The position numbers and the translations under genes were made by a program. Under the pieces are notes generated by a model. That model saw nothing but the letters and a program-made list of their open reading frames with translations, made no database searches and was not told the origin of the DNA. Of a DNA stretch of 64,000 nucleotides, positions 1 through 61,306 are shown in pieces (the stretch's first letter is position 1; each line of letters begins with the position of its first letter). This DNA comes from Escherichia coli (lineage in GTDB: Bacteria; Pseudomonadota; Gammaproteobacteria; Enterobacterales; Enterobacteriaceae). The DNA lies in NCBI RefSeq assembly GCF_041248615.1, contig NZ_CP158425.1. The stretch is one strand, 5' to 3'.

Positions 1-551
1 CACACTCAGCCATTAACAACCCTATGATTAACCTTCTGGCGCAGGGTCGTGCAGCGAAAATTGCACTGTTTATTTGCACCCAAACCATCTCCGACTTTAT
101 TGCTGCGGCAAGTGTTGAAACTGCCAATCGAATTACGGGGCTCTGCAACAATTATATAAGCTTGCGAGTCAACGATACTCCTACTCAGACGCTTGTTGTA
201 GAGAACTTTGGTAAGAGTGCGATAAGCACAAATATGGTCACTTATACGACCGGTTCAGAAACATCTTTGCCGCATAATAACTTCTCAGGTTCAATCTCAG
301 AAAGAAAGCAGACAACTTTAGAAGAGAGTATTCCAAAGGATCTCTTGGGTCAGGTCCCTATGTTTCACATAGTTGCCAGGCTTCAAGATGGCAGGAAGGT
401 TGTAGGCCAAATCCCTATTGCTGTTGCTGAGAAACAAATGAAGCCAAACACAACTCTGTCGGAAATGCTTTTCAAGAAGGCCGGAAAAGTTACTTTGCGT
501 CAAAATCTCGATATCAAAAATCTTAATAAATTTCTAAGGAAGTTGCATTGA
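1..551 (+). CDS. Type IV coupling protein (TraD/VirD4-like), C-terminal part; ORF open at the left window edge
   Basis: The frame has no stop from nt 3 to the TGA at 549-551. The sequence LLAQGRAAKIALFICTQTISDF resembles the conserved core end of conjugative coupling ATPases. Overlapping co-directional genes follow. Confidence 0.5.
   Translation, partial: HSAINNPMINLLAQGRAAKIALFICTQTISDFIAAASVETANRITGLCNNYISLRVNDTPTQTLVVENFGKSAISTNMVTYTTGSETSLPHNNFSGSISERKQTTLEESIPKDLLGQVPMFHIVARLQDGRKVVGQIPIAVAEKQMKPNTTLSEMLFKKAGKVTLRQNLDIKNLNKFLRKLH
484..498. promoter_or_regulatory. Palindromic operator-like site GAAAAGTWACTTTTC, copy 0 (inside the coupling-protein ORF)
   Basis: GAAAAGTTACTTTGC. Confidence 0.45.
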
Positions 552-1660
552 TGGATGAAAAAATTGTCCTGACGCGCCAGCAAATTTTAAGCTCTGCACT
601 AAAAGTCAGCAAATGTCGCTCGCTCGTAAAAAGGCGCTTTCAGTCTTTGGGTTTAAAGTACGCAGATTCTCAGGAAGTTCGAGATCGGCTAACTAAGATA
701 GAAAAAAACGCGTTTCATCATTTGGGAAAATTTTGTCAGAGCAACGATATCGATTCCCTATTCTCCATGGCAAATACCCTGTCTGAGCTTTTCCTTTTAA
801 AGGGAGAGTTGATCACGACTGATCCCTTTGGGGACCGTGAAACCAGCTACTGGTCGGTACCACAAGGTTCATGCCATGAATGGATTCAATCGCTGACCAC
901 CAGCGAAGGTCCTGAACGTAAATTCGTTAGTTTCCGTATTTCTTTCGATAACAATGACGAACGGTGTGATCTTGTAAAGAAGAATGCCCGTATGCTTGGT
1001 TGTTATCTTTTGCCTTATTTCGTCGATTTGACACGCACGGTGGGCGCATTCATTAATTTGCCAGGTAGTGTCTCTTTTAAACAAGTACAGCGCATCAAAC
1101 CCCAGATTCATCCAGAAACAACACATAGTCATATAGTTACTATTGAGGACTCTCCCTTTCTTTCTCGGTTAAAATTTAAAATCATTACTGCCATAGATCG
1201 GCTTCCTGACCCTAATGGCCTTTATACAAACACCTTTAACAGCATTATTGACCGTGCACTGCTGACTCATCTCAAAACCGAACAGGAAAAAATAGATAGT
1301 CCAAGAGTCTGCAAAAATGTGATTTCGGCTTTTGCCGACTCAACTCTTTCTCTGCCGGTGTTTAACATCGGCCTAAACGAGCAGTACAGATACTGGACGC
1401 CGTGGGGCATCAACTTTATAGAATTTTCCCGCCAGGCCGCAAAAGCAAGGACCGCTGTATTTGTTCCTGATGTGGGACAGATCGAGTGGAAAAGCGCAGA
1501 GCATAAAGAACTGGCGGAGTTAAGCCTCATCGACCAAATCATACCTAAACAGTACCACTGGCTCCTGGGTATCCCGACGATGTGGCGTAACAACTATTGC
1601 AATCACGATCAGAGGCTAGCTCTTTTTCGTGAATGGAGGGAAAGCAATGGCTGCGGATAA
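551..1660 (+). CDS. Hypothetical protein, transfer-region associated
   Basis: ATG at 551 overlaps the upstream TGA (TGATG). 369-aa ORF with no motif I recognise. Confidence 0.55.
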   Translation: MDEKIVLTRQQILSSALKVSKCRSLVKRRFQSLGLKYADSQEVRDRLTKIEKNAFHHLGKFCQSNDIDSLFSMANTLSELFLLKGELITTDPFGDRETSYWSVPQGSCHEWIQSLTTSEGPERKFVSFRISFDNNDERCDLVKKNARMLGCYLLPYFVDLTRTVGAFINLPGSVSFKQVQRIKPQIHPETTHSHIVTIEDSPFLSRLKFKIITAIDRLPDPNGLYTNTFNSIIDRALLTHLKTEQEKIDSPRVCKNVISAFADSTLSLPVFNIGLNEQYRYWTPWGINFIEFSRQAAKARTAVFVPDVGQIEWKSAEHKELAELSLIDQIIPKQYHWLLGIPTMWRNNYCNHDQRLALFREWRESNGCG

Positions 1661-2309
1661 TACAAGCAGAGCAGCAGTGCTCAGAACAATGCTTTTTTTT
1701 GGCATGGTCATTTATTTTGGTTACAGCCTGGCTTTCCAGAATACTGAGGAGCTCAAATATCAGATTACTCAGGAGGTTAATGCAAGCCGGTCCATCATAT
1801 CAAATGACCGTTGGAAGTCTGTTATTGCAAATAGTGAAGCGACTTTAAATTGGTTGGTACATGACTATAAGTTAATTGACTATCTGAATACTATTCTGAT
1901 CCCTGACACCAAAAAACCAGCCAGAGGTATTAACATTGTTGCTGAAAAATTTACCTCTATTAATTACACTATGGCCAAAAACATACCCCTCTTACTTTAT
2001 CAGTCCATTTTCCGGTGGAACTTAATCCTGGGGTGGCTAATCGTTTTTCTGCCCTATCTATTTGCCATGCTAGCAGATGGAATGTACCAGTGGAAATTGA
2101 AGAGGTACGTATTTGGTAAGGTTACAGTTCAGTTTTATCGTATTTGGTTTCGAGCATTTTGGGTGATCAGTGCTTTAACGATGGTCTACCTGGTCATGCC
2201 GAATATGTCACTATTTAACAATATCGCTCAACTTTTCCCACCAGTCGCTTTATTGATACTGGGAATTGCATTGAATCGCTTGTGGTCTAACTTTCAAAAA
2301 CTCATGTAA
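1647..2309 (+). CDS. Integral membrane protein (ICE/plasmid transfer-region type)
   Basis: GGAGGG lies 6 nt before the ATG at 1647, which overlaps the upstream gene. Several hydrophobic helices are present (MLFFGMVIYFGYSLAF, LILGWLIVFLPYLFAML, FWVISALTMVYLVM, LFPPVALLILGIAL). Confidence 0.55.
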   Translation: MAADNTSRAAVLRTMLFFGMVIYFGYSLAFQNTEELKYQITQEVNASRSIISNDRWKSVIANSEATLNWLVHDYKLIDYLNTILIPDTKKPARGINIVAEKFTSINYTMAKNIPLLLYQSIFRWNLILGWLIVFLPYLFAMLADGMYQWKLKRYVFGKVTVQFYRIWFRAFWVISALTMVYLVMPNMSLFNNIAQLFPPVALLILGIALNRLWSNFQKLM

Positions 2310-2319
2310 AGGTGGTCAG

Positions 2320-4939: not shown

Positions 4940-5224
4940 TTATTTAAGCTGGTCATCGTCTCTGGCCAGCATAGCCCAACCATTCGACTGGTTTTCGCGG
5001 GAGTAAGGATTCATTTCAAAATAACTATCTACCGCGTCGCTGTCCGCAACAGAACTGTTGTTAGCTCTCTTTGAACCCTGAACCACTACAGCATCAACCT
5101 CTGCGGCTTTCCCGTTGCGCTGTACCAGGATTTTAACCGTCTTGGGCTTACGTCTTGCGAGCAGTTTGTTGGCGATAAAAAGCACAACAATCCAGGCCAA
5201 AAGCACGTATAAAAATTTATTCAT
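4940..5224 (-). CDS. Small membrane-anchored protein
   Basis: AAGGAGGG RBS. N-terminal hydrophobic helix FLYVLLAWIVVLFIANKLL. Confidence 0.55.
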   Translation of the reverse strand: MNKFLYVLLAWIVVLFIANKLLARRKPKTVKILVQRNGKAAEVDAVVVQGSKRANNSSVADSDAVDSYFEMNPYSRENQSNGWAMLARDDDQLK

Positions 5225-5385: not shown

Positions 5386-5400
5386 AGAAAGTTACTTTTC
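5386..5400. promoter_or_regulatory. Palindromic operator-like site, copy 1
   Basis: AGAAAGTTACTTTTC, intergenic. Confidence 0.5.
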
Positions 5401-10434: not shown

Positions 10435-10449
10435 AAAAAGTAACTTTTT
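10435..10449. promoter_or_regulatory. Palindromic operator-like site, copy 2 (overlaps the -35 position of the ParB-like paralog 1 promoter)
   Basis: AAAAAGTAACTTTTT, adjacent to the promoter motif at 10415-10426. Confidence 0.5.
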
Positions 10450-10560: not shown

Positions 10561-10575
10561 GAAAAGTTACTTTTC
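10561..10575. promoter_or_regulatory. Palindromic operator-like site, copy 3
   Basis: GAAAAGTTACTTTTC, a perfect 7+1+7 palindrome. Confidence 0.55.
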
Positions 10576-17553: not shown

Positions 17554-17568
17554 TGAAAGTTACTTTCC
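17554..17568. promoter_or_regulatory. Palindromic operator-like site, copy 4
   Basis: TGAAAGTTACTTTCC. Confidence 0.5.
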
Positions 17569-21073: not shown

Positions 21074-21088
21074 TTAAAGTAACTTTCC
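21074..21088. promoter_or_regulatory. Palindromic operator-like site, copy 5
   Basis: TTAAAGTAACTTTCC. Confidence 0.5.
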
Positions 21089-23804: not shown

Positions 23805-23819
23805 TTAAAGTTACTTTTC
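23805..23819. promoter_or_regulatory. Palindromic operator-like site, copy 6
   Basis: TTAAAGTTACTTTTC. Confidence 0.5.
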
Positions 23820-28853: not shown

Positions 28854-28868
28854 GAAAAGTAACTTTTA
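28854..28868. promoter_or_regulatory. Palindromic operator-like site, copy 7
   Basis: GAAAAGTAACTTTTA. Confidence 0.5.
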
Positions 28869-33065: not shown

Positions 33066-33080
33066 GAAAAGTAACTTTTG
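33066..33080. promoter_or_regulatory. Palindromic operator-like site, copy 8
   Basis: GAAAAGTAACTTTTG. Confidence 0.5.
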
Positions 33081-35745: not shown

Positions 35746-38136
35746 TTATGTTTGAGGGAATTCTATAGCAAATGTGGCCGTGCCAGATTGACCACTTACA
35801 GCGGGAGTAACGGGATACGTGCGCTCTTCACCATTACCAAGATCCAGTGACAGCGATTTAGTTTCACCAGGCTGGACCGTAACTCCGGCAACCGTAACGC
35901 CGAACTGGGCATTTTTCTGAACAGTCAGGGTTCCGTTTAACTGTCCGGTAATGATAGAACCGTCCTGACGCCGCAACACACTGGTTCGGATGATGGCCAG
36001 CGGCGTGTTGTCCGTTGCTTTCAGTGCTACGGCTGTGGCCAGCGTCTTGAGATTATCCAGCATAATCAGATTCGCAGGCTGGTAGGTAAAATTAAGCGTT
36101 TTAGTGGTCCGGTTACCTGATTCGTCAATAGCCAGTGCCTCCAGATGATACATCTGTCCCGATTCGTCAGTGTTGGGGAAGATTCTGGGGTATTCCGGAA
36201 TAAAGACATCCTTGGATAACGGCGTGAATGCCAGGGTGACCTTTTCAGAGTTAGGTCCACCAGCGAGCTGAAGCGATGTCAGGGAAGCATCCCCAGAGGC
36301 ATCAGTAACGCTTATGCGAAGGTTCTCAAGCCCTTTAACCAGTTTTCCTTCTGCGTCTGCGCCATTAAAACTGAACGCGATAACCGGAAGCGTTGAGTCA
36401 ATTTTCAGCGGTGCATTAAGCGTTTTGGTTCCGGTGTTTCCAACAAGATCCGTGGCAGAGACGCTAACCACCGTATAATCCCCGTCCGGTAGACCAGCGT
36501 ATGAGAAGGTGGCGTTTTTGGTTTTATAATCGCTTTCACTGACGGTCACAGGCTTCAGCGTGAAAGGTTCCCCCCGGGCATTTTTAAGGGTGGCTTCGAA
36601 AACTTTGGTATCCCAGTAGCTGATGTTCCAGGCGTTGACGCGATCATTATCGGTGGCCGTCATAGTGATTGTCTTGGAGGCCTTGTTTACCTGAGCGACA
36701 TTAACCACCGGTGGGTTGTTATCCCAGATAACCGTAAAATTACCAGCAAGCGCATCGAATATGCTGTCACCATCTTTTCCCGAGTAAAGGTGCAGATACT
36801 CAAATCCTTTGTCACTGGTGTAGTTGAAGTTAACCGTCATCTCGCATGAACTTTGTCCGATAGGTATAGTGCAGAACCAGGCTGCATTTTTTACCGTTCT
36901 GAACTTTTGCACGTATGGTCGGGGTTCAGCGGTTACCTTTATGCGGCTAATGGTGGCGGTTTTAACGCTGATTGAGGCCTGAGTTAACCACTCACTGGTA
37001 TCACTCCGGTACATCTCTTTAGCCACTATCTTCGGGGCTATTTCCATCGCCGGGGCTGGAGTGAAGTTGAGGGAGTTATGATGAATTCGTCTTACTCCTC
37101 CTGCCAGAGTCTGGAATTCATGATAAGTATCCCCCACATTGGGATATATGTATTTGAAAGTATAAATATTATAAGTGCTATCGGACGTCTGGAAATTCGA
37201 GTCCGCCCAGCCATATTTGGAACCGTTAACAGCAGTAAAGTCACTTTTTTTCCTTAATACCCGTACGGAAATAGGGTTCTGGAAGACGGTCATGCCAGAC
37301 TGATAAGTGACCCATGATCCGGTAGTGGCGTCCTGCACCTGGATGATATCGTCAGGCTTAACCCGATCAATTACGCTTCGGCGGCTTAGTTCGATCCTGT
37401 TTCCCGCTTTGTCATAAAGGTAGATCCCCACTTTATATTCAGAGCGGTTTTCCGGTGCCAGGGCATTGCTGCTTGCGTCGGCGACTTGAACGGTTACGCT
37501 ACCTTCCACTGTATTAATTTCCGCTGGCTTTTTACGCTCCACTCCAGCGGCATCGGTTATGAAATATTCAGCATTAGCAAGCCCGGAACCTTTATCACTC
37601 AGTCCATTAAAGACCAGTGCCTGGACGCTGGCGTACTGCATACCGGCTGGTACTGAAGTGAAGATCGCTTCGCTGCCAAAGTTCCACCCGTTTCTCGTAT
37701 AACTTATGGTACCCGTTGCCGGAGGCGTTCGGTCAATTGCAAGCGGGTAATCCTGCCGGGAGACCTCCTTCCCTTGCAAGTCGGTAATCACCTCTCTGAG
37801 GGTGAAGCTATCTTCTCCCATCGCTGGTACGGTCAGAGTCTTGCCGTAATAATCAAAGCCTGTCGAAGATGTGGTACGGTCATCTACGGTAACCAGGCTG
37901 CTTTTCGTGCTCCAGATGAGGCTCCCGTCACTTTTCAGCAGACTGAGCGTAATATAACGGTCCAGACCGGAAATAACGGCAACGTCAAAGCTCGTTACCG
38001 GATTAATCCATACGGATGCAGGCGATACGGTCTTTTTAACGTTCAGGGTATCTTTAAAGCTGAATTCTGCGATTTCAGCGGAAGCTCCTGCGCTGAAACC
38101 TGCAAATGCAATAAGCAGGGCTAGTTTGATTTTCAT
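35746..38136 (-). CDS. Secreted large beta-rich (Ig-like repeat?) protein, paralog A
   Basis: AGGAGA RBS before the ATG at 38136. Signal peptide MKIKLALLIAFAGFSAGASA. Shares GLDRY, YYGK.L.PA.GE, GLENLRI, GGP and EYPRIFPN blocks with 43689-46109 and 50384-52840. Confidence 0.7.
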   Translation of the reverse strand: MKIKLALLIAFAGFSAGASAEIAEFSFKDTLNVKKTVSPASVWINPVTSFDVAVISGLDRYITLSLLKSDGSLIWSTKSSLVTVDDRTTSSTGFDYYGKTLTVPAMGEDSFTLREVITDLQGKEVSRQDYPLAIDRTPPATGTISYTRNGWNFGSEAIFTSVPAGMQYASVQALVFNGLSDKGSGLANAEYFITDAAGVERKKPAEINTVEGSVTVQVADASSNALAPENRSEYKVGIYLYDKAGNRIELSRRSVIDRVKPDDIIQVQDATTGSWVTYQSGMTVFQNPISVRVLRKKSDFTAVNGSKYGWADSNFQTSDSTYNIYTFKYIYPNVGDTYHEFQTLAGGVRRIHHNSLNFTPAPAMEIAPKIVAKEMYRSDTSEWLTQASISVKTATISRIKVTAEPRPYVQKFRTVKNAAWFCTIPIGQSSCEMTVNFNYTSDKGFEYLHLYSGKDGDSIFDALAGNFTVIWDNNPPVVNVAQVNKASKTITMTATDNDRVNAWNISYWDTKVFEATLKNARGEPFTLKPVTVSESDYKTKNATFSYAGLPDGDYTVVSVSATDLVGNTGTKTLNAPLKIDSTLPVIAFSFNGADAEGKLVKGLENLRISVTDASGDASLTSLQLAGGPNSEKVTLAFTPLSKDVFIPEYPRIFPNTDESGQMYHLEALAIDESGNRTTKTLNFTYQPANLIMLDNLKTLATAVALKATDNTPLAIIRTSVLRRQDGSIITGQLNGTLTVQKNAQFGVTVAGVTVQPGETKSLSLDLGNGEERTYPVTPAVSGQSGTATFAIEFPQT

Positions 38137-38269: not shown

Positions 38270-38284
38270 GAAAAGTTACTTTTT
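38270..38284. promoter_or_regulatory. Palindromic operator-like site, copy 9 (upstream of paralog A)
   Basis: GAAAAGTTACTTTTT followed by GATAG, as in copy 12. Confidence 0.5.
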
Positions 38285-43688: not shown

Positions 43689-46109
43689 ATGAAACATCTC
43701 GCTTTTATTACTGCTGTAGCCGGACTCGGTATGTCTGTTCAGGCCCCAGCTCAGATATATGAATCGGCCTTTAAGGACACGAACGGTATTGAGATCCACG
43801 CCCCGTCTTCTCGTCTTATGCTTAATCCGGCATCACCGGTAACTTTGACACTTATTTCAGGTCTTGATCGTTTCGTTAATGTCAAAGTCACGAAAGACAC
43901 TGGAACTGTCATTCTTAATACTACGACTACACGGACGGGTGTATCAGACCGACTAACAGCTGCTGACGGTAGTGAGTTCTACGGCAAAAAAGTAACTTTG
44001 CCTGCTTTGGGTGAAGGCAAATTTGTCGTTCAGATAAACGTGTTAGATCTCAATCAGAAGCCTGTAGCGACCTATAACTATAACTGGCTAATTGATGTCA
44101 CCCCTCCAGCGGCAAATGCTCTTACCGCTAATACTGGTTCTGGCTCTACCGCTGGTGACGTGTGGAAGCTTGGATTAGAGGCAACGGGGCAGTATGACTT
44201 CACCTCTTCGGGCGTAAGTGATGCAAATGGTATTGATAAGGGCCTAATATATATTTACAGGCAGGACGGTAGCCTCTACAGCACTACACAGATGCAGTAT
44301 GACGTATCCGGCCAAAAGATGTACCACACTTACTCTAAGAATTCAGTTAAGGGAACCGGAATACCAGACAGCAACCTGGATGAAGACTTTACTGCAAAAG
44401 TTGTTATCTTCGATAACGCAGGTAATAGCCGAACGCTGCCAACTCAAAAATTTCGCTACGACAACACGCTGGGTGAGATGACACTGTGGGCCGTTCATGA
44501 TCCAAATACGTCTTCCAGCGTCGTACCCGGGGTTTCTAATTATCCGGCTTACAAAGCCGGTATGGTCGTTAACGAAAACCCTATTCGATTAGTCTACCGG
44601 ATCCCAAAATCTAACTACCGTGCTTATTCAGAAGGTGGGCTTCAGTTCATCAATCAATATTCCGCCCCCAAAGAGATAGCTGTAGACAGCACTTATGCTT
44701 ATGTTGAAATGACTCTTCCCTATGGCTCAATTAATGGGGATATGGCTCGTATGGCGAACTTTGGCCAGTGGGGAGGGTATTATCCGTCATACAGCCTCGT
44801 TCTAAACCCATCTGCAAACCAAACGCCTGCATTTGCGGGTACCTGGGTAGATTTCCTCGATGATAAGGGGAACTGGGTTAAGTGGAAGGATTTTGAGAGT
44901 GTGGCTTCATCACGACTGCCAATTAAAATTTCCCGACTTCGTTTTAACGTTGAAGCCCGGCCCTTTGCACAGGAGATCGGCGGTAAGGCGACCTGCACCA
45001 TTCCGGCAGGAAAAACCTCGTGTGAAGCGCCTGAGACGTTTGATATGGCCTTGGGTACCCAGGGCTACAATAGAATCCTTTACTTCGTTCGCAGCATCAG
45101 CAATCCCATTTTGCGGTCTGAGCAATGGATTATGACACGCTGGAACAATAAACAACTGCCGGTAATAAACTCGATATCATATGACGAGACTAACAAGCAG
45201 CTGGATGTACTGGCGTCACTTGAAGGCGATGGTAACTGGTTCGACTCGGTCTCATTGAGGGAATTTTATCTTTCCGATAAGAACACCGGTACCCGGATGT
45301 CACCAACAGGCGTAATCAAATCTCGTATCTCAGGTAACTACACGATTGCTTATGATTTATCCCGTCAGTCTGAAGGAAAATACAACGTTGAGGTCAACAT
45401 CAGGGACTTCTTCCAGAACCAGACCAATAAAACTTTCGGAGAAATTGCTCTGGATAACACTCCTCCGACAGTGGCCATAACATTCGACGGAAAGCCGGTA
45501 AAAGACGATACGGTAGTGTACGGCCTGGAGAACCTCAGGATCGCTCTGGCAGATAATCTGACAACCCCGAGGATAACCCGTCTTCAGCTCGTAGGTGGCC
45601 CCACAGCTGATAACGTTGAGCTTACGTGGTCACCGGCAGGCAAAGATACATACATGCCTGAGTATCCGAGGCTGTTCCCAAATTTCGAACCATCTGAAAA
45701 TTATTCAATTAGCGTAACAGTTGCCGATAGTCAGTCGAATACCAAAACCTATACTCAGAAGTTCAGTTATCTACCGAATAACCTTGTGCAGTTACATAAT
45801 CTACGCACATTGTCGGTCAGTTCACCTCTCAAAACGACAGATGGCGTACCACTTGCGTACCTGTCCACTAACGTTCTGCGTAAGACAAATGGAGAAATTG
45901 CTAAAGGGGTCCAGAACGCAACGCTGACTGTGCGGAAGGATGCAGCCTTCGGTATTAAATTTAATGGGGCACAGGCGGCTCCAGGCGAGTCAGTTGAGGT
46001 GCAAATAGATATGGGCCAGGGGGATAATCTTCTGTTACCCGTTTATCCTTCCGAAAATGGGAAAGTTGGCACCTCAGAATTCATGATTCAGATCGACGAG
46101 TTGAAGTAA
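43689..46109 (+). CDS. Secreted large beta-rich (Ig-like repeat?) protein, paralog B
   Basis: AGGGGA RBS. Signal peptide MKHLAFITAVAGLGMSVQAPA. Long collinear similarity to 50384-52840, for example RFNVEARPFAQEIGGKATCTIPAGKTSC against RFNVQARPYDQKITGGATCSIPAGSTTC. Confidence 0.7.
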   Translation: MKHLAFITAVAGLGMSVQAPAQIYESAFKDTNGIEIHAPSSRLMLNPASPVTLTLISGLDRFVNVKVTKDTGTVILNTTTTRTGVSDRLTAADGSEFYGKKVTLPALGEGKFVVQINVLDLNQKPVATYNYNWLIDVTPPAANALTANTGSGSTAGDVWKLGLEATGQYDFTSSGVSDANGIDKGLIYIYRQDGSLYSTTQMQYDVSGQKMYHTYSKNSVKGTGIPDSNLDEDFTAKVVIFDNAGNSRTLPTQKFRYDNTLGEMTLWAVHDPNTSSSVVPGVSNYPAYKAGMVVNENPIRLVYRIPKSNYRAYSEGGLQFINQYSAPKEIAVDSTYAYVEMTLPYGSINGDMARMANFGQWGGYYPSYSLVLNPSANQTPAFAGTWVDFLDDKGNWVKWKDFESVASSRLPIKISRLRFNVEARPFAQEIGGKATCTIPAGKTSCEAPETFDMALGTQGYNRILYFVRSISNPILRSEQWIMTRWNNKQLPVINSISYDETNKQLDVLASLEGDGNWFDSVSLREFYLSDKNTGTRMSPTGVIKSRISGNYTIAYDLSRQSEGKYNVEVNIRDFFQNQTNKTFGEIALDNTPPTVAITFDGKPVKDDTVVYGLENLRIALADNLTTPRITRLQLVGGPTADNVELTWSPAGKDTYMPEYPRLFPNFEPSENYSISVTVADSQSNTKTYTQKFSYLPNNLVQLHNLRTLSVSSPLKTTDGVPLAYLSTNVLRKTNGEIAKGVQNATLTVRKDAAFGIKFNGAQAAPGESVEVQIDMGQGDNLLLPVYPSENGKVGTSEFMIQIDELK

Positions 46110-46210: not shown

Positions 46211-46225
46211 GAAAAGTTACTTTAA
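46211..46225. promoter_or_regulatory. Palindromic operator-like site, copy 10 (at the edge of the iteron array)
   Basis: GAAAAGTTACTTTAA. Confidence 0.45.
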
Positions 46226-49918: not shown

Positions 49919-50017
49919 TCACTACCATTGTCACTTAAAATCATTACCAACGTCGAAATAGTCTCTACCATTGTCTTTTAAGTCACTCCCGTTGTCACTT
50001 ATGTCGCTACTGTTGTC
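49919..50017. repeat. Origin iteron set 2: five direct repeats at 21-22-bp spacing
   Basis: TCACTACCATTGTC (49919), TCATTACCAACGTC (49941), TCTCTACCATTGTC (49962), TCACTCCCGTTGTC (49983), TCGCTACTGTTGTC (50004). Confidence 0.85.
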
Positions 50018-50245
50018 AGTGACAATGCTCCAGCCCAGTAACCATGCGGCCTACAGCGTACCGGGATCTTCTTTGTACTCTCTGGCACCTTTGGGATCAT
50101 TTATTGGATCTACATGAGGGATAAAATCTTTTGACGATTTCGTAGTGCAGTTATACCAGCGACTTAGCAAGACAAAAGCTGCAATTTAGTGACGAGTTAC
50201 TAGTCTGCCCAACAAGAGCAATGCAGAGAAGATATGTGGTGAAAT

Positions 50246-50383: not shown

Positions 50384-52840
50384 TTATTTTAATTCTTCAA
50401 TGTTAATCATGAACTCAGATCTGCCAGTAAGGCCGGATACAGCAGGGAAAATAGGAAAGCTACGGCTGTCCCCGAGCCCCAAATCCAGTTGAAGCTCTTT
50501 GCTTTCACCTGGCATCGCAGAAACGCCATTTACAGTCACGCCGAATGCAGCGTCCTTACGGACAGTAAGCACTGCGTCCTGAAGCCCTGTAGCGATTGAA
50601 CCATCCTTTTTACGCAGCTGGCTGGCATACAGAACAGCCAGAGCAGTATTGTCAGATGTTTTGAGAGAAGCATTGACAGCTAAGGTTTTCAGATTCTCTA
50701 GCCTGACGAGATTGTTTGGAAGGTAGTTAAATTCGACTGAGCTTTCTTTAACGTTGTTCATCTCATCTTTGGCCTGAACTGTGAGAGTGTATGTTTCGCC
50801 TTCATTAAGAGACGGAAAGATCTTGGGATAATTAGGTGCATACAGGTTGTTTCCCAGATTCACCCAAGACAATTCCACCGCATCAGAAACAGGGCCACCG
50901 CGAAGAGTCATACGGCTTAAGGATGGTTTAGTTAGAGCATCGGTGAGCTGTATACGGACGTTCTCCAGCCCATATACTGTTACGTTTTTGCTGATCGGTT
51001 TTCCTTCGTAGCTAATACTTACAGATGGTGCTGTATTATCAACGACAACTGTTTGATAAGGGAGGTTACCGGTATTGTTGAATGTATCTTGGGCATTAAT
51101 CACCACGTTATAACTGCCTTCTGGTACCTCTTTCATGTTGAACTCATACGTGTAGTTCCCAGACGCCATATTTCTACCTGTTTGTTTGCCGGTTACGCTT
51201 ATTTCTGCGTTGTTACGGTTTTTATCTGACAACCAAACTCGATTTACATAAACATGGTCGAAATATGAACCATCTCCAGGTTGATTCACGTAAACCTGGA
51301 GAATGTTGGTGGTTTCATTGTAATCAAATCCAGTGACGGAGGGACCCAGTGTATGCCAGGCTATATTCTCCCATATAGGGGCAAAGAAGGTTGCTTCGGT
51401 GGTTGACCTTACTTCATAGCCACTATGAAGATAACCGGTAGTGCCATTTATAATATCCTGGGGCAAAGAGACGGTACAGGTTGTTGAGCCAGCTGGAATA
51501 CTGCATGTTGCTCCGCCAGTGATTTTTTGATCATATGGCCTGGCCTGTACATTGAATCGGATATTAGTAAGTTTTATAGGCATATCAGATGCCTTGAACA
51601 GGTTCCAGTTTACGCTGTTGAACCATGTTCCATCAGCCTTTTGTCGTTCTATGGGTGAACTTCCCCAAGCCGGACTCTTTACAGAGGCAGGATCCCAGTT
51701 GAGCCAGCTGGCATACTGACCAAGATCTCCTCCAGACCATTGATATGTATTCACAGGTCTATAGTAGTTTCCATCTAAGGCACCCTGTGGCAGCTTAACT
51801 TCCACGTAGACATAGGTGGCATCTTCGGAAAGGACCTGTACTCCGCCATAGTTATTGGTAATGCTCATGCCACCATTTCGATATGGCTTCCAGTTAGTTC
51901 TTGGGATACGTATAACCAACTTGTAGGGGTTTTCCAGCACTGTAAGGCCTCGTTTAAACGGGACGTATCCCGAAGAAATGCCGGGTACAACACTGGTGCT
52001 TACACGTGAGTCATGAACTGCAAATGGCGTAAATTCTCCCATTTGATCGTCATATAAAAACCGCTGGGGAGGAATGTTAAGCGTATTTCCTGCCAGGTCC
52101 GTAACGATGAAATTGAAGGTGAATTCTTCATCAAGATCACTTGAGGGCATGCCAGCCTGGGTGTTCATATCTTTAATCCACGGATAGAACGCACGTTTAT
52201 TGGCTGTGTCATAACTCAGGTTATTGTCGGAGACCACAGAACCATTACTTCGTTTAATGACAAGACGGATCTTGTCAATTCCACTAGCATCCTCAATACC
52301 GTCTGCAAATATAGAAAACTGGCCACTACCGCCTCGGCCCAACTCCCAAAGTGGCCCAGAAAGTACCATGTCGTAACCTGCGTTTTGACTCGGATAAATA
52401 CTCTTATAGCGTGGAGGAGTTGTATCAACGATGAAATGATAAGTAGATGTGCTCACTACAGTCTGGCGAATATCCAGAGTTTCATTGACTACAGTAAAGG
52501 TCCCTTCTCCGAGCGCCGGTAGAACCATATCCTTTCCATAGTATTCTGTTCCATCGGCAGCAACGATACGATCTGCAACGCTCGTTTTGGTCGAGACGGA
52601 GGAATACATAACCTTTTTATCGCTGTCTCGTGTGACCGTCACTCGCTCGTACCGATCAAGACCCGATATCAAGTTCAGAGTCAAAACACCAGCGGGATTA
52701 AGATATGTTTGTGTTGCAGGTTTGATATTCCGAACAGCCTTATTGGTATCTGTAAATGAGTAGCTAAATACCTGAGCATGTGCCGAAGATACAGTAGCAA
52801 GGGCAGTTGCAACCATGCAGCCAATTAGAGTTTTACGCAT
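50384..52840 (-). CDS. Secreted large beta-rich (Ig-like repeat?) protein, paralog C
   Basis: GGAG RBS. Signal peptide MRKTLIGCMVATALATVSSAHA. C-terminus SEFMINIEELK against SEFMIQIDELK in paralog B. Confidence 0.7.
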   Translation of the reverse strand: MRKTLIGCMVATALATVSSAHAQVFSYSFTDTNKAVRNIKPATQTYLNPAGVLTLNLISGLDRYERVTVTRDSDKKVMYSSVSTKTSVADRIVAADGTEYYGKDMVLPALGEGTFTVVNETLDIRQTVVSTSTYHFIVDTTPPRYKSIYPSQNAGYDMVLSGPLWELGRGGSGQFSIFADGIEDASGIDKIRLVIKRSNGSVVSDNNLSYDTANKRAFYPWIKDMNTQAGMPSSDLDEEFTFNFIVTDLAGNTLNIPPQRFLYDDQMGEFTPFAVHDSRVSTSVVPGISSGYVPFKRGLTVLENPYKLVIRIPRTNWKPYRNGGMSITNNYGGVQVLSEDATYVYVEVKLPQGALDGNYYRPVNTYQWSGGDLGQYASWLNWDPASVKSPAWGSSPIERQKADGTWFNSVNWNLFKASDMPIKLTNIRFNVQARPYDQKITGGATCSIPAGSTTCTVSLPQDIINGTTGYLHSGYEVRSTTEATFFAPIWENIAWHTLGPSVTGFDYNETTNILQVYVNQPGDGSYFDHVYVNRVWLSDKNRNNAEISVTGKQTGRNMASGNYTYEFNMKEVPEGSYNVVINAQDTFNNTGNLPYQTVVVDNTAPSVSISYEGKPISKNVTVYGLENVRIQLTDALTKPSLSRMTLRGGPVSDAVELSWVNLGNNLYAPNYPKIFPSLNEGETYTLTVQAKDEMNNVKESSVEFNYLPNNLVRLENLKTLAVNASLKTSDNTALAVLYASQLRKKDGSIATGLQDAVLTVRKDAAFGVTVNGVSAMPGESKELQLDLGLGDSRSFPIFPAVSGLTGRSEFMINIEELK

Positions 52841-52994: not shown

Positions 52995-53009
52995 CAAAAG
53001 TAACTTTTT
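52995..53009. promoter_or_regulatory. Palindromic operator-like site, copy 11 (upstream of paralog C)
   Basis: CAAAAGTAACTTTTT. Confidence 0.5.
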
Positions 53010-53059: not shown

Positions 53060-53074
53060 TAAAAGTAACTTTTG
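53060..53074. promoter_or_regulatory. Palindromic operator-like site, copy 12 (upstream of paralog C)
   Basis: TAAAAGTAACTTTTG followed by ATAG. Confidence 0.5.
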
Positions 53075-53212: not shown

Positions 53213-53839
53213 ATGTTATACATGCTCTTATGCTGTTTTCTGATGCTCAACAGTACATTCGTTATGTTCAGAGCAATGTCTGCAATAAGTAAAGGATCCG
53301 CTAAAGAAAACCGGTCTGAAATATCGCTGATAGTCCTAGCAACACTTGGAATCGCATCACCATTCATTGTCGCAATGATTACTATTAATGAAAGTATGAC
53401 ATCTAAAACAGTAACAGATTTTTCTTTGGGTGCTCAGTGGTACGGAATGGTTTCAGCGGTAGCGCTAATGGGGTTATATGCTCGACGCGTTTGGAAAGAG
53501 AAGAAGTCCTTATTTACTGGCGCTTTCCTGGCCTCTTCCTTAATGGCCTTTATTTTTACTGACAGCCTTGTTTTCGTATCCCAGAAGGACACCGGCGTTC
53601 TGGCTACTTTCGTACTCGATAAAAACGCTGGAGATATTGATTGTAGTCGCCCGGCTATGATTGTCCATTACAGTAAAGGTGTTCCAACGGACTGGCGTTG
53701 CCCAACCAGTATCATGTTGATGGCGTATTCTTCATATCCTTTTTTACCCTGGCCTGAGTATAGCCATGGTACCAGCCAGTCTCTTACGGTTGTTATTGAT
53801 ACATTTATGGAAAACGCTGTTAATCTCAGCCAAAAATAA
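53213..53839 (+). CDS. Polytopic membrane protein
   Basis: GAGGAA RBS. At least five hydrophobic segments. Confidence 0.55.
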   Translation: MLYMLLCCFLMLNSTFVMFRAMSAISKGSAKENRSEISLIVLATLGIASPFIVAMITINESMTSKTVTDFSLGAQWYGMVSAVALMGLYARRVWKEKKSLFTGAFLASSLMAFIFTDSLVFVSQKDTGVLATFVLDKNAGDIDCSRPAMIVHYSKGVPTDWRCPTSIMLMAYSSYPFLPWPEYSHGTSQSLTVVIDTFMENAVNLSQK

Positions 53840-54845: not shown

Positions 54846-55967
54846 AGGACTTCCTCTTGTTGAATACGTTCGGCGTACAGGATGCGAACCGAAACGGTCG
54901 TGTTTTCAAACTCGTTCTCAAAAACGTCCATCCATTCCGTCCGGAATTCTTCCCCCAAAAGGTTATCGAGCCCCTGAAGAGATAATGGAAGAACGGCTGC
55001 TAGAGATCCCCCGGCTGCGAGATGAGATGCAGCTGCCTGGAGATGCCGCCTGGCCCGGTTATCGGCAAAAGGTGGGTTCATCACGACATAATCAAACTTC
55101 TTCTGTTGATTAGACTTAGACCATGTGAGGAAGTCAGCTTCTGTCGTATCGTATCCCTTAGCCCGGGAGATAAGGCAATTCAAAGTATCAAGCTCGATGC
55201 CAGTAACGATCACACCGGCAGGGAATGATTTAAGCAAATCCGCATGGCCAATATTAGGCTCCAGGAGGGTATCCCCTTCCCCTGCACCAAGCAGGGAAGA
55301 TACATATTCGCTGATTCGGCAAGATGAAGGGTAAAACTGATGCGATACAATATCAGGCATCTCCCCTATCTGGCCGATGTAACGAATAACCTCACACGGA
55401 TCATAGGAAAATGTCACATCGTATTTTGTTACTGTTGCCCCTAAGAACCGAAGGGTGTCAGCGGCAACACTCGAAGATTTGCGTTCGGCGAGAGACCCTA
55501 AAGATGTCCAGCAACTCCATTTATTGTCCCCGTCATTTTTAAACATCAGTTCAGAAAGCTGCATCCGGGTATCAAAGTCGATGCACTGCTTAAGTACAGG
55601 GAATGCCTCCAAAGATTTCTTGCTATGAGCCATACGGTCGGCAGGTAATGCCAGCGGTACGATAGCTGATAAAATATTGTTAAGCCGCTCGGCGATATCA
55701 GGGTGGACGTCAATATGCATTGATCCATTTTTGTAAACCCTGAAACGAATACTGTTGCCATCGATGCAGATCCATTTTCTGAACCCCTCATGTTCGACCA
55801 ACGCCTCAACCAATGATTTGGTGTTATGGATCGCCTTCACCTGTTCGCCACGGAAGAATGCGCATATAACGCGGAGCTCGCTCAGCGGTGAAATGCCAGA
55901 CTCTTTAAAATCCTGAACCGCCCCGGGAATCCTGGAGACTAAACTTCCTGAGAAAGAGGTAAACAGG

Positions 55968-56294
55968 ATGACTAAAAATACTCGTTTTTCCCCCGAAGTC
56001 CGTCAACGGGCAGTCCGTATGGTTCTGGAAAGTCAGGATGAATATGACTCACAGTGGGCGGCAATTTGTTCCATTGCCCCAAAGATTGGCTGTACGCCGG
56101 AGACTCTGCGTGTCTGGGTTCGCCAGCATGAGCGGGATACCGGGGGCGGTGATGGTGGGCTCACCAGCGCTGAACGTCAGCGTCTGAAAGAGCTGGAACG
56201 TGAAAATCGTGAACTGCGCCGCAGTAACGATATCCTTCGCCAGGCTTCCGCTTATTTTGCGAAGGCGGAGTTCGACCGCCTCTGGAAAAAATGA
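55968..56294 (+). CDS. IS3-family transposase OrfA
   Basis: 108 aa; differs from copy 1 at a few residues ([18 protein letters not shown]). Confidence 0.9.
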
Positions 56295-57181
56295 TGCCAC
56301 TGCTGGATAAGCTGCGTGAGCAGTACGGGGTCGGACCGGTATGCAGCGAACTGCATATTGCCCCGTCAACGTATTACCATTGTCAGCAACAGCGACATCA
56401 TCCGGATAAACGCAGTGCCCGTGCGCAGCACGATGACTGGCTGAAGAGAGAGATACAGCGCGTATACGATGAAAATCATCAGGTGTACGGTGTGCGTAAA
56501 GTCTGGCGTCAGTTGTTACGGGAAGGAATCAGGGTGGCCAGATGTACAGTGGCGCGCCTCATGGCGGTTATGGGACTTGCCGGTGTTCTCCGGGGTAAAA
56601 AGGTCCGTACGACCATCAGCCGGAAAGCCGTTGCCGCAGGCGACCGCGTAAACCGTCAGTTCGTGGCAGAACGACCTGACCAGCTGTGGGTGGCTGATTT
56701 TACTTACGTCAGCACATGGCGGGGCTTCGTCTATGTGGCGTTCATCATTGATGTGTTTGCCGGATACATCGTGGGGTGGCGGGTCTCATCGTCCATGGAA
56801 ACGACATTCGTGCTGGATGCACTGGAGCAGGCGTTATGGGCCCGTCGACCGTCCGGCACGGTCCATCACAGTGATAAAGGTTCTCAGTATGTATCGCTGG
56901 CCTACACACAGCGGCTTAAGGAAGCCGGATTACTGGCATCAACAGGAAGTACAGGCGACTCGTATGACAACGCGATGGCGGAGAGCATCAATGGTCTTTA
57001 CAAAGCGGAGGTAATACACCGTAAGAGCTGGAAAAACCGTGCAGAAGTGGAACTGGCCACACTCACGTGGGTGGACTGGTATAACAATCGACGATTGCTG
57101 GAAAGGCTGGGCCATACTCCTCCGGCAGAAGCAGAAAAAGCTTATTATGCTTCCATCGGAAACGATGATCTGGCAGCCTGA
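56291..57181 (+). CDS. IS3-family transposase OrfB
   Basis: 296 aa, near-identical to copy 1 OrfB. Confidence 0.9.
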
Positions 57182-57900
57182 GTTCACAGATAAAACACTC
57201 TCCAGGAAACCCGGGGCGGTTCAATCCACCCTTAATTTCTGCCAGGGGTATTTAGACGGCTCGCAAACTCCGGTAGTGATCATGCGGGTGGAGAACCCAA
57301 AAGCTTTGTTTGTCTTGTGACTGCGGCTCAGAGACTGGAAGACGTCGTAAACCCTTTCTTTAATAAATTGATTGCGGTCATTAAGCAAAGCAACGACTGT
57401 GCCCACTACAGCGTCAGCTGTGAAATCAGGGATCACCTGAGGCGGCATAATATAACGGTCGGCCGTAAACTGCTTATCCCATTCGTTACGTTTGGCATCC
57501 GACATGATAGGCAAAACATCAGTGAGTGCCATAACGCGTTTCCAGTATTCTGATCTCAGAGCGTTTTCTGCGAACAAGGCATCCGCTTCTGAGATGCTGT
57601 GGTTGTAGCCTGAGAGATAAGAATAAAGTTTCTGGTGATTGTGGGTTTTGAACTGGACAGCCATGAGTTTCAACAAGCAGAGTTCATCATTATAGGACTC
57701 AACAAGATCCGCGATAATGCCGAGCTCTTTGCGCATATCTGGAAGAAATGTTTCAGGAGAGCTAACCACCAGGCTATGAGAGGTTGTTAAAGCCAGTACG
57801 CTGTGACCTGCATTATCGGGTTTAGCTTCAGAATCAAGAGATGACATTTTACCGGTCCTTTAGAAAAAACTTTTACCAGGATAGCAACGTCGCTCAGTAA

Positions 57901-57914: not shown

Positions 57915-57978
57915 TGACACGAAAAAGTTTTTTATGTCTCTGAATAAAACTTAAAGATGTCAACTCATAGAAAGAAGC

Positions 57979-59258: not shown

Positions 59259-59534
59259 AGGGGCTCCGTTACATTTTTCTGCTTACTTTCTGCGTAGCGG
59301 GGATACTACCGAAAAAAAAATTCATAATTTTTCGCAAAAAAGGTACTTTTTGAGCCTATTCTGATTTTTTACAAAAAAAGGTGGCTCCCCATTACTTGTG
59401 ATGGCATAAAAATCGCTTCATAAACAAATACATAAATCCAAAACATAAAGTTCAGGTATAAGTGAGGAAAAATCTTATAAATCCGAAATGCTGAAAGTCA
59501 AAACTGTGCGTCTTAAACAACTTTTTTTTGCTCC

Positions 59535-59547: not shown

Positions 59548-59627
59548 TAAAGCCCGTGGTTAGGTACGATACCAGCACCTAAATTTCTCTCTCAGGTATA
59601 GACACTTTGACTCGACATCTCAGACAC

Positions 59628-60440
59628 ATGCCGATAATCAAATGGGCTGGTGGAAAAACGAAACTGATGCCTTTCATCAGCCATCACTACCCACACGATC
59701 ATAGTTGCCGGTGGGTAGAACCCTTTATAGGCGGTGGTGCCGTTTTTCTGAACATGTTTGCACAAAATGCATTGCTTGCAGATAGCAATCCAGACTTGAT
59801 CAACCTATACAGGACTATTCAAAGACAGAAAACTAACTTTATAAATCAGGTCCAAAACTTGGCGGATAAAACCTTTGTCGAAAAGGACTACTATGAGATG
59901 AGGGACCGTTTCAACAAAACCTGTATTTCTGGTCAATCGCTTCAAAGAGCGGCTTTGTTTTACTCCCTGAATCGCCTGGGCTATAACGGTATGTGCCGCT
60001 ATAACTCAGAAAGAATCTATTCAGTGCCGTGGGGGAAACATACAGAACTGAAGCTTGACCTCAATAAAATAGACTACCTTTCATTTCGTCTTTCAGGTAT
60101 TGAACTGATCACCGCTGGTTTTGAGGAGACTCTGGCCGCAACCGGTGAAGGAGATCAGATTTACTGTGATCCGCCATATGACAAAACAAGCAAAACTAGT
60201 TTTGTCAGTTACGATGGTAAACCGTTCAGCCAAAGCGACCACGTGCTGTTAGCAAATATGCTCGTTGACGCTCACAGAAAAGGCGCTGCTGTTGCGATAT
60301 CAAATAGCCTGACATCATTCACTTTGGGCCTCTATGAAGAGCGTGGATTCGTCATACACAGACTCAGCGCTTACCGATCCGTAGGAAGTAAGCCGAATAC
60401 ACGGAAAACGGAAACAGAAATACTGGCCGTGCTGAAATAG
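59628..60440 (+). CDS. dam: Dam-family (D12 class) DNA adenine methyltransferase
   Basis: IKWAGGKTKL...VEPFIGGGAVFLN...YNGMCRYN...IYCDPPY is collinear with E. coli Dam (LKWAGGK...VEPFVGAGSVFLN...YNGLCRYN...VYCDPPY). The track ORF starts at TTG 59607; the ATG is at 59628. Confidence 0.85.
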   Translation: MPIIKWAGGKTKLMPFISHHYPHDHSCRWVEPFIGGGAVFLNMFAQNALLADSNPDLINLYRTIQRQKTNFINQVQNLADKTFVEKDYYEMRDRFNKTCISGQSLQRAALFYSLNRLGYNGMCRYNSERIYSVPWGKHTELKLDLNKIDYLSFRLSGIELITAGFEETLAATGEGDQIYCDPPYDKTSKTSFVSYDGKPFSQSDHVLLANMLVDAHRKGAAVAISNSLTSFTLGLYEERGFVIHRLSAYRSVGSKPNTRKTETEILAVLK

Positions 60441-60448
60441 AGTAAATT

Positions 60449-61306
60449 CTAATCAACTAGGCTAATCCATTCCTCAAAAGTTAATACCTCAGGGTAAGTT
60501 CGTTGAACATAAGGTATAAACTGAAGCTCTTCTATTCTCCGGTCGCCCCTCTTTCCTTCGCAAATAAATGAAATGAGTCCTTGCTGAGAAAGGCCAGTAA
60601 GGACGCTCATAAGTCTTATATTTAGACTTTTAAGCTGTAAGTCGTTATTAATGTCCTCCACTTTATGAGAGCTCTGGCCTGAACGTTTAAGATACTCGTA
60701 AACCATGAAATTCGAATTTCGTCGTTTTAACAATTTTTCGGTTATGCATTCCTGAATGAAGTCGCCAAGAGCATCTAAAAGCGGACTGAGAACTACCGGG
60801 AAAGTTAATGTGTAACTTTGAGAAGTTTTAGACAAAGTGAATGAGTTTAGAAAGCTAAAGTTTAGTCTCTTTTTTGAATATGGAACATAAGCGACAAGAG
60901 TAGTCGACATAACAGTAAGTAAAGCTTCAAGATGGTTCACTGTTATTAAAGTGGTTTTATCTGTATTTCTAAGATTATGGAAATCAATAAACGCTACTCT
61001 TGAACGGCTAAGCCAATCTTGTACTTTAATGTCGATAGAAAATTGCGAGATATGATTTGAACATTCATTTTGGGTGATAGGGCATGCAGACGAAAGATGG
61101 TTATGGATTATCATGCATAGCACAAAAAAAGGAAAACGGCAGGCTGTGGGGCATTGAAAACCGGTTAAAGAAAGCTTAGACGTTTCATATGCGCTTACCG
61201 GAAAAGTAACTTTTCTTAACGTTGGCTTTGACGATGTTCTTGCATTTTTACAAATGAAACCGAGACCCAGATCATTGTGCATTTTAAAGTCCATCTCCAT
61301 CATCAC
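60449..61306 (-). CDS. Hypothetical protein
   Basis: AAGGTG lies upstream of a cluster of ATGs at 61297-61306; 285 aa; AT-rich. Contains operator palindrome copy 61201-61215. Confidence 0.45.
   Translation of the reverse strand: MMMEMDFKMHNDLGLGFICKNARTSSKPTLRKVTFPVSAYETSKLSLTGFQCPTACRFPFFVLCMIIHNHLSSACPITQNECSNHISQFSIDIKVQDWLSRSRVAFIDFHNLRNTDKTTLITVNHLEALLTVMSTTLVAYVPYSKKRLNFSFLNSFTLSKTSQSYTLTFPVVLSPLLDALGDFIQECITEKLLKRRNSNFMVYEYLKRSGQSSHKVEDINNDLQLKSLNIRLMSVLTGLSQQGLISFICEGKRGDRRIEELQFIPYVQRTYPEVLTFEEWISLVD
61201..61215. promoter_or_regulatory. Palindromic operator-like site, copy 13 (inside ORF 60449-61306)
   Basis: GAAAAGTAACTTTTC, a perfect palindrome. Confidence 0.45.

Follow-up and report, generated by a model that had tools for sequence, protein, structure and literature searches.

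The 64,000-nucleotide stretch of Escherichia coli DNA described here (RefSeq assembly GCF_041248615.1, contig NZ_CP158425.1; the whole stretch is called the window below) is a piece of the backbone of an IncHI2 conjugative plasmid, and is 100% identical to hundreds of plasmids of 210-275 kb from Salmonella, E. coli and Enterobacter. It is collinear with the reference plasmid pM160133_p1 (NZ_CP022165.1), running from the end of traD in the Tra1 region to repHI2 and on towards a second replicon, and it encodes three ParB-like paralogues, termed L1 (9162-10346, minus strand), L2 (58095-59258, minus strand) and L3 (62469-63524, minus strand). Dispersed among its genes is a short palindrome, AAAAGTWACTTTT, which recurs about once every 4 kb along the conserved IncHI backbone. 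The set of these palindromes is a real, strongly selected cis-element found superfamily-wide, and is most probably a new member of the ParB/KorB-type plasmid-wide site networks, new for IncHI plasmids.

IncHI plasmids are major vehicles of multidrug resistance, including IncHI1 (typhoid Salmonella), IncHI2 (mcr-1 and others) and the IncHI-like pNDM-MAR-type plasmids of Klebsiella, and their 200-kb backbones consist mostly of genes of unknown function. They are silenced by H-NS/Hha and thermoregulated (PMC7366339). Their regulation has so far been known only through H-NS/Hha and the TrhR/TrhY-HtdA circuit, and an invariant, evenly spaced cis-element offers a concrete handle on plasmid-wide control, with two candidate proteins, R0104 and R0042 in the nomenclature of plasmid R27. 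No description of the motif was found in the searchable literature, which excluded the original genome papers of R27 (Sherburne 2000) and R478 (Gilmour 2004).

The palindrome, its counts and its placement

The element has a 6-1-6 geometry, with half-sites AAAAGT, the consensus (g)(A)AAAGTWACTTT(T)(c) and the duplex form GAAAAGTWACTTTTC, and its invariant part, the 11-bp core AAAGTWACTTT, was used for the counts. Positions +/-6 (A/T, 64%) and +/-7 (G/C, 41%) are informative and composition is at background past +/-7, so the palindrome is a unit of 13-15 bp and no longer repeat. The window holds 15 exact cores where about 0.05 are expected from base composition, and 20 matches with at most one mismatch, compared with 2.1 +/- 1.5 in shuffled sequence; two copies, at 10561 and 61201, are perfect 15-mers, for which shuffles give an expectation of 0.00. 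A first-pass annotation of this DNA, made by a model from the letters alone, had listed 14 copies, two of them perfect, and argued that the recurrence of an 11-nt core was not chance. All 14 copies are present, both perfect ones are perfect, and the argument from recurrence is borne out by the counts; the list missed a copy at 43987-44001, inside a gene for an immunoglobulin (Ig)-like protein, and plasmid-wide the sites number 44-84. A "degenerate copy" placed at 35611 is unconvincing, as it consists only of the half-site GGGAATATTACTTTC.

Scanning the whole replicon, which had been suggested as a check, gave 44 exact cores on the IncHI2 plasmid (pM160133_p1, a complete plasmid used for all whole-plasmid IncHI2 counts) against 0.2-0.35 expected, with 42 on the IncHI1 plasmid R27 and 73 on a Klebsiella MOBH plasmid, where 0.3-0.45 are expected on each. 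Variants with an S centre add seven copies plasmid-wide, and the Klebsiella plasmid has 84 sites in all, 73 of them with a W centre. With zero, one and two mismatches the IncHI2 plasmid has 44, 24 and 114 matches (expected 0.35, 6.5 and 87), and R27 (42, 17 and 62) and the Klebsiella plasmid (73, 31 and 109) are similarly above expectation. Enrichment exceeds 100-fold for exact copies and is only about 4-fold for one-mismatch copies, and on the IncHI2 plasmid the inner 9-mer always extends to the full 11-mer. No other palindrome is over-represented on these plasmids. The copies belong to the backbone: there are none in the 108-143 kb resistance region of the IncHI2 plasmid, and none in the 88-129 kb accessory/IncR segment of the Klebsiella plasmid. 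The motif was not found in 50 kb of IncC backbone, and the perfect 15-mer, sought across 185,579 species genomes, appeared among the matches listed only as scattered single chance occurrences.

On the IncHI2 plasmid, 26 of the 44 sites are intergenic, compared with 19.8% of the backbone (P=1e-8). About 22 lie 58-311 bp (median ~160) upstream of a start codon, and the rest comprise about seven within ~100 nt of a coding sequence (CDS) boundary, about 11 deep in CDSs and three between convergent genes; about half of the sites are away from any promoter. Tra1, Tra2, the ter operons and the oriT/mobI region all contain sites; others adjoin the two replication genes or are spread throughout the genes whose function is unknown. 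Spacing along the backbone is more even than random (coefficient of variation 0.65 vs 0.97, P=0.0012; R27, P=0.0016), the two results not being independent. The AT content of the flanks equals the background, without excess, and among 23 gene-oriented promoter-proximal sites there was neither a companion (KorA-like) motif nor a promoter element at fixed distance, and no information outside +/-7 bp. What seems to be selected, from this pattern, is coverage of the replicon, the sites being put where they cost least, and not promoter operators only. The first-pass annotation had proposed the operator set of an element-encoded dimeric regulator; conservation, uniqueness, 6-1-6 geometry and association with the L1 and L2 genes all fit that idea, but "operator" is too narrow a term when about half of the sites lie off promoters and the spacing is unusually even. 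A classical dimeric repressor operator set was rejected on the same grounds, along with the position of the proximal L1 site near -58 and the scarcity of one-mismatch copies.

The short, symmetrical form of the element, together with the several copies that lie within 4-42 nt of stop codons, could also be taken to mean that it binds no protein and is a mobile repeat, an RNA or single-stranded DNA (ssDNA) hairpin, a terminator, a signal in transferred ssDNA or a target of restriction-modification or recombination. This is scarcely credible, as there is no conservation past +/-7 bp, the copies stand in both orientations relative to genes, some of them lie inside CDSs at conserved codon positions, and restriction targets are usually avoided rather than enriched more than 100-fold. 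The hairpin is weak, at about -3 kcal/mol (ssDNA values of -2.5 to -3.1 kcal/mol, z-scores -1.6 to +0.1, no better than shuffles), and a hairpin or terminator role was rejected for its weak stem, which is not G+C-rich; a terminator scan found none at the L1 sites. Repetitive extragenic palindromes (REP) and miniature inverted-repeat transposable elements (MITE), which the first-pass annotation had named as a possible refutation, were likewise rejected because the flanks are unconserved, with background base frequencies past +/-7 bp, and copies occupy orthologous positions in diverged plasmids; the palindrome is no mobile repeat. Readings as Tus/Ter, recombinase, restriction-target or Chi-like sites were ruled out by reasoning from symmetry, copy number and enrichment.

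Purifying selection on the motif is strong throughout the IncHI lineages. Nineteen IncHI2 sites are exact at the orthologous position of R27, in alignable DNA that is 67-80% identical, a divergence at which about 3% of 11-mers would survive by chance. Some of these are intragenic and keep identical offsets in both plasmids (trhU +19, trhI +1199, rsp +3209), and further conserved intragenic sites include two in traD and others in the tus-like and von Willebrand factor A (VWA) genes. Intragenic copies are read as K-V-T-F/L (11), x-S-N-F (3) and K-K-L-L-L (3). IncHI-like contigs, from Yersinia, Leclercia and others, also carry the motif, at 5-7 copies per 21 kb, and the Klebsiella MOBH plasmid with 84 sites encodes proteins that are only ~35% identical; L1 itself is only 35-50% identical in the Yersinia, Leclercia and Klebsiella lineages that share the motif. 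Plasmids with a single match to the L family were not accepted as independent lineages, being IncHI derivatives without L1.

All hosts of plasmids with the motif are Enterobacterales, and this would accommodate a host protein as binder, for example a nucleoid-associated or nucleoid-occlusion-type factor. SlmA (site GTGAGTACTCAC) and MatP (13-bp matS) mark chromosomal domains by dispersed short palindromes, and AGTACT, at the centre of the SlmA site, is similar to the core AGTWACT. However, half-site spacing in the SlmA site is off by one base from that of the palindrome and the outer bases differ, and no E. coli factor is known to recognise this consensus. That the motif keeps to the co-evolving IncHI backbone and clusters before plasmid ParB-like genes points to a plasmid-encoded partner, which makes a host factor very improbable.

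Candidate binding proteins

The three ParB-like genes noted in the first-pass annotation do exist in the window, and they encode proteins of 394 (L1), 387 (L2) and 351 (L3) amino acids. L1 and L2 are orphan ParB-like proteins, L2 corresponding to R27 R0042, annotated as a "partition protein", and L1 probably to R0104, judging from gene order; L3 is a ParB/Noc-like paralogue. The three and an orphan gene of IncC plasmids make up a single family (25-34% mutual identity) that is distant kin of the IncC KorB-domain ParB. L1 comprises a ParB-type N-domain, a helix-turn-helix (HTH), a long acidic/Pro linker and a conserved C-terminal domain, with invariant GxxR (G99-A-C-R102) and recognition-helix S-x-x-H-x-R motifs. 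Its AlphaFold model has a predicted local distance difference test (pLDDT) score above 85 for residues 15-255, and the best match of the model in the PDB is RK2 KorB 8qa9 (E=1e-8, template modelling (TM) score 0.67), followed by ParB and Noc; L3, like L1, matches Noc structures. L1 and L2 have a ParB-like fold, and their genes are associated with sites in a conserved manner. PADLOC gave no defence-system match for L1-L3.

Five gene families have a site at most 350 bp upstream in all three complete plasmids: L1/L2, mobI, the first gene of the pilus operon, the ~800-aa Ig-like proteins and the gene after trhI. L1/L2 is the sole DNA-binding family among them. In five of six IncHI-like lineages a proximal site stands at -96 to -116 of the L1 start. 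The upstream sites lie at -96 and -222 in the window, as AAAAAGTAACTTTTT (10435..10449) and the perfect 15-mer GAAAAGTTACTTTTC (10561..10575), at -100 and -218 in R27, at -104 and -205 in Yersinia and at -97 and -295 in another lineage, and the Klebsiella L1 homologue has six copies within 870 bp, one of them at -116. When the upstream regions of six lineages are aligned, the proximal palindrome is the best-conserved block, and it is followed downstream by a conserved TT(A/G) and then an invariant G-TAnnnT (TTAGGA-16 nt-TATTGT in the window, ~23 bp downstream). A scan of the L1 promoter for sigma-70 gave no match; judged from this promoter-like pair, seen by phylogenetic footprinting, the centre of the proximal site would lie near -58 and the site would be clear of the -35 position, which the first-pass annotation had it overlap.

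Upstream of L2, consensus sites stand at -112 and -291 in the Klebsiella plasmid. In the window AAAAAGGTACTTTTT (59337..59351), with the one-base variant AAAGGTACTTT, lies ~85 nt upstream of the gene; this variant is conserved in IncHI1 and IncHI2, and in the R27 stretch examined it lies ~90 nt upstream of the L2 orthologue (45096-45106). It could be a deliberately weak or paralogue-specific site. Published R27 arrays report L2 (R0042) as very highly expressed and L1 (R0104) as well expressed and temperature-independent (PMC7366339), and both are up 2.5-3.4-fold in an R27 htdA mutant (PMC7366339).

From sequence and model, L1 is most likely the binder and thus the leading candidate, and L2 is a possible second one, as an alternative to L1 or its partner. 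L3 is an unlikely binder, having no site in its own promoter and no orthologue in the 84-site Klebsiella plasmid. The suggestion that the ParB-like proteins are the candidates therefore stands for the L1/L2 family, which carries upstream sites, and not for L3. The two ribbon-helix-helix (RHH) paralogues also put forward were not found: ten small first genes downstream of sites were scanned, and none encodes an RHH or HTH domain.

Proposed plasmid-wide control and known site networks

It is probable, though far from certain, that the palindrome is the binding or loading site of a plasmid-encoded orphan ParB/KorB-type protein, with L1 the likeliest and L2 its alternative or partner. The HTH of an L1 and/or L2 dimer would recognise the pair of AAAAGT half-sites, and the bound protein would close as an NTP-dependent clamp, presumably using CTP, and slide for a few kilobases, by analogy with KorB, VirB and BisD. 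With one site per ~4 kb, one protein could reach every operon of a 180-270 kb backbone, its own gene included; the grid would give access to all backbone operons because the clamp slides kilobases from its loading sites. The outcome may be plasmid-wide control of transcription, either as repression (KorB) or as anti-silencing or activation (VirB, BisD). KorB-like repression agrees with the architecture, and VirB/BisD-like anti-silencing agrees with H-NS/Hha silencing, the L1 site near -58 and the co-induction of L2 under conjugation-permissive conditions.

The closest known system is KorB and its operator OB of the IncP plasmids RK2/RP4 (PMC11790492; PDB 8qa9, 1r71). The KorB operator is also a 13-bp 6-1-6 palindrome (TTTAGCSGCTAAA), present in near-invariant copies at about one per 4-5 kb of backbone in promoter-proximal, distal and intragenic positions, and the candidate binder L1 shares the layout of KorB (ParB N-domain, HTH, acidic linker, C-terminal domain) and has sites before its own gene. 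The two networks differ in scale, with 12 OB sites compared with 44-84 on IncHI plasmids, and in their proteins: L1 and L2 are orphans without an adjacent ParA (the IncC protein in RK2) and without a KorA/TrbA partner motif, they have neither the Pfam KorB nor the KorB_C domain, and their box II reads QGACR instead of GERR. In addition, the proximal L1 site is near -58 rather than -39/-40, and IncHI plasmids carry two or three paralogues. Because the sequence-level tests fail, the IncHI network is regarded as working like KorB/OB and L1 not as a KorB orthologue. The KorA/KorB analogy of the first-pass annotation holds accordingly for its KorB-like parts and lacks a KorA-like companion motif.

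Several results weigh against L1 or L2 as the binder. Pfam finds only HTH_ParB in L1-L3, with no ParBc, KorB (PF08535) or KorB_C; their NCBIfam ParB/Noc scores fall below the curated cut-offs; and the C-terminal domain of L1, modelled at low confidence as two helices, is unlike the SH3-like domain of KorB. The recognition helices are not fully conserved in Klebsiella (KSEQHLRQ vs VSVTHVRK for L1, with more divergence in L2), and protein-site covariation is uninformative, since in the lineages sampled the L1 homologues (35-65% identity) all go with one and the same motif. Some natural IncHI plasmids lack L1 and keep L2 and the sites. The IncC orphan of the L family shares S-x-x-H-x-R, yet the 50 kb of IncC backbone scanned is without the motif, and the protein on the dispersed sites of IncC is another ParB, one linked to a ParA. 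The even spacing may partly be a matter of operon structure, and many of the sites behind its IncHI2 and R27 results are orthologous.

VirB with virS of the Shigella virulence plasmid (PMC10770331) and BisD with bisS of ICEclc (PMC12409273) are orphan ParB-like CTP-dependent clamps of mobile elements that load at palindromes. VirB counteracts H-NS and BisD activates transfer genes, both at a distance from promoters, and IncHI plasmids are likewise H-NS/Hha-silenced. These systems differ in having few sites only (two bisS on ICEclc), and L1 is without a BisD-type activator domain or an identified BisC-like partner. VirB-type sites lie in or upstream of H-NS-silenced AT-rich promoter regions, whereas the AT content of the IncHI flanks is that of the background. 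Noc/NBS, SlmA/SBS and MatP/matS are also comparable, with tens of sharp short palindromes that mark a replicon or domain and function by distribution, not promoter position, and Noc is itself a ParB paralogue; but these systems are chromosomal and tied to division or domain organisation, whereas L1 has no evident membrane-targeting helix and the IncHI sites have no link to division. A 2025 survey of ParB-CTPases lists many uncharacterised orphan ParBs on mobile elements and leaves IncHI unmentioned.

An R27 htdA mutant shows generalised, backbone-restricted derepression of 139 of 181 genes, with transposon, tet and cit genes, parAB and mucAB as exceptions, and this shows that a plasmid-wide regulatory layer exists in R27. 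The targets resemble the map of the motif, which is absent from accessory DNA and from the parAB promoter, a resemblance that is a correlation only. In the searchable literature no DNA target is described for the TrhR/TrhY-HtdA circuit. The sites could belong to another plasmid regulator, whether TrhR/TrhY, their antagonist HtdA or an unannotated small HTH/RHH dimeric transcription factor. TrhR, TrhY and HtdA have no recognisable domains, so that DNA binding by them is conceivable, and trhR has a site before it, at a distance upstream of 82 nt in IncHI2 and 81 nt in R27; mobI/oriT is flanked by sites, and the pilus operon and trhF are preceded by them. Such an assignment is unlikely. It would be plausible for promoter-proximal sites, but about half of the copies are buried in CDSs, stand at the ends of genes or separate convergent ones, leaving a classical factor nothing to act on, and the near-absence of degenerate copies is unusual for transcription-factor regulons. 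Furthermore, the 350 bp upstream of the Klebsiella trhR homologue are free of sites, the R operon is HtdA-independent, and the small first genes yielded no candidate factor.

A bolder version of the clamp proposal is that the L1/L2 loading grid turns the plasmid as a whole on or off, licensing its H-NS-silenced backbone or relieving the silencing in the manner of VirB or BisD. It would be the missing cis-element of htdA derepression, distinct from KorB-type repression. Sites would then have been written into essential CDSs as K-V-T-F/L where intergenic space is absent. This extension is speculative and rather doubtful.

The same sites might instead be a dispersed centromere (parS), bound by the Par1 ParB or by L1/L2 with a ParA. 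RK2 KorB doubles as a partition ParB, and IncC plasmids, which are also MOBH, have 12-14 ParB-bound palindromes scattered over the backbone, eight copies being counted in 50 kb. A partition role is quite improbable all the same. There is no ParA gene adjoining L1, L2 or L3, IncHI plasmids already have two characterised partition modules, and the motif differs from the canonical 16-bp parS TGTTNCACGTGAAACA. The Par1 ParB is of the P1 type (PF08775) and has no detectable similarity to L1-L3 or to KorB-type ParBs, and in none of IncHI2, R27 and the Klebsiella plasmid does a site occur close to the parA promoter or in the interval from traC to parA.

The dispersed parS of IncA/IncC plasmids, bound by the ParB of parAB053 (PMC10954446), resembles the IncHI set in being a single over-represented backbone palindrome, often near promoters, of related MOBH plasmids. 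It differs in having a TTTCACATGTGAAA core within a 22-bp inverted repeat and in its lower copy number, and its binder is ParA-linked and canonical (GERRWRA, KorB domain); one parS overlaps the parA promoter, whereas the IncHI sites avoid the parAB region. The IncC ParB was rejected as a direct homologue of L1, as the match to L1 in IncC is a separate orphan gene and not the ParB tested by electrophoretic mobility shift assay (EMSA). The extended IncC parS, ACTTTCAC-ATGTGAAAGT (pB557-NDM 8651-36883), shares its GAAAGT/ACTTTC hexamers with the IncHI motif, but in everted order, which may be coincidence or distant kinship of the recognition modes.

If loading of L1 or L2 at the palindromes is correct, the paradigm of ParB-CTPase clamps as long-range regulators, known from KorB, VirB and BisD, would extend to clinically dominant plasmids at a much higher density of sites, and decoys or titration aimed at the palindrome, as a conserved target, could be used to interfere with the maintenance or transfer of the plasmids.

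Sites and neighbouring genes in the window

By transferred RefSeq annotation 12 of the 15 copies in the window are intergenic, in agreement with the first-pass figure of twelve, the exceptions being those at 484, 43987 and 61201. The first of these, GAAAAGTTACTTTGC (484..498), lies inside the 3' end of traD, which encodes the type IV coupling protein (T4CP), 60 nt before the next gene. The second, AAAAAGTAACTTTGC (43987..44001), is 305 nt inside the Ig-like CDS 43689-46109 (plus strand) and is read K-V-T-L, and the third, the perfect 15-mer GAAAAGTAACTTTTC (61201..61215), is 95 nt inside the CDS 60449-61306 (minus strand) and is read K-V-T-F. All three have exact R27 orthologues.

Apart from the two copies before L1, five intergenic copies lie upstream of minus-strand open reading frames (ORFs): AGAAAGTTACTTTTC (5386..5400) is 169 nt upstream of ORF 4940-5224, TGAAAGTTACTTTCC (17554..17568) 146 nt upstream of ORF 17212-17415, TTAAAGTTACTTTTC (23805..23819) 138 nt upstream of ORF 23435-23674, GAAAAGTAACTTTTA (28854..28868) 212 nt upstream of ORF 28323-28649 and GAAAAGTAACTTTTG (33066..33080) 176 nt upstream of ORF 32520-32897. 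TTAAAGTAACTTTCC (21074..21088) is found 23 nt past the stop codon of ORF 21104-21331 (minus strand). The remaining copies are near the Ig-like genes. GAAAAGTTACTTTTT (38270..38284) is about 114-141 nt upstream of the Ig-like gene 35746-38163 (minus strand), GAAAAGTTACTTTAA (46211..46225) stands between the convergent end of an Ig-like gene and the repHI2 iteron region, with no promoter to regulate, and CAAAAGTAACTTTTT (52995..53009) and TAAAAGTAACTTTTG (53060..53074), 65 bp apart, share the divergent intergenic region between the Ig-like gene 50384-52840 (minus strand) and a membrane protein gene at 53213-53839 (plus strand). A C-centred variant inside an Ig-like CDS, AAAGTCACTTT (37235..37249), is a possible weaker site.

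The three Ig-like genes (35746-38163, 43689-46109 and 50384-52840) encode paralogous proteins of ~800 aa. Two of them have a palindrome 114-230 nt upstream, and the third has one copy inside and one just past the gene; the orthologues on R27 and Klebsiella plasmids have upstream sites too. The repHI2 gene has an 81-bp tandem repeat downstream of it (10.3 copies, 78% matches, 46871-47699), just outside which the copy at 46211 sits, and two short arrays of a 21-bp repeat upstream (49516-49594 and 49960-50018); the 81-bp and 21-bp repeats presumably serve the RepHI2 replicon as iterons or incompatibility repeats.

Genes for DNA modification are interspersed with the ParB-like genes, encoding a 794-aa PAPS-reductase-domain protein (23924-26308), a site-specific DNA methyltransferase (29492-30742), another methyltransferase (41411-42235) and a Dam-like methylase (59607-60440), and a similar neighbourhood of ParB-like and methylase genes recurs beside the IncC orphan ParB-like gene. 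R27 R0153, also annotated as a "partition protein", is a thermonuclease homologue beside a cytosine methylase and no ParB-CTPase, and it is 15.6-fold up in the htdA mutant (PMC7366339 supplement). In IncHI2 the gene contains a palindrome 19 nt past its start, and this copy has an exact orthologue in R27. The window also carries a Hok-family type I toxin gene (14169-14288) and a RelE/ParE-family toxin gene (34495-34791), ordinary addiction modules, neither of which adjoins a palindrome.

The window and pM160133_p1 differ by insertions, the window being without the insertion sequence (IS) IS66 and the mcr-1/ISApl1 unit and having two extra IS copies. These two ~1.3-kb copies (18125-19431 and 55914-57222), which the reference plasmid lacks, have ORFs of 108 and 296 aa in an IS3-family layout. 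One interrupts a DUF3085 gene and the other a DUF4942 gene, the latter at a junction where an apparent 5-bp overlap resembles a target duplication. On the Klebsiella plasmid NZ_CP034040.1 the IncHI palindrome is clustered, with six copies upstream of the L1 homologue and five beside RepB, and a second, unrelated repeat, CCCCCGnnnnCGGGGG, is present in 15 copies within positions 1-40102.

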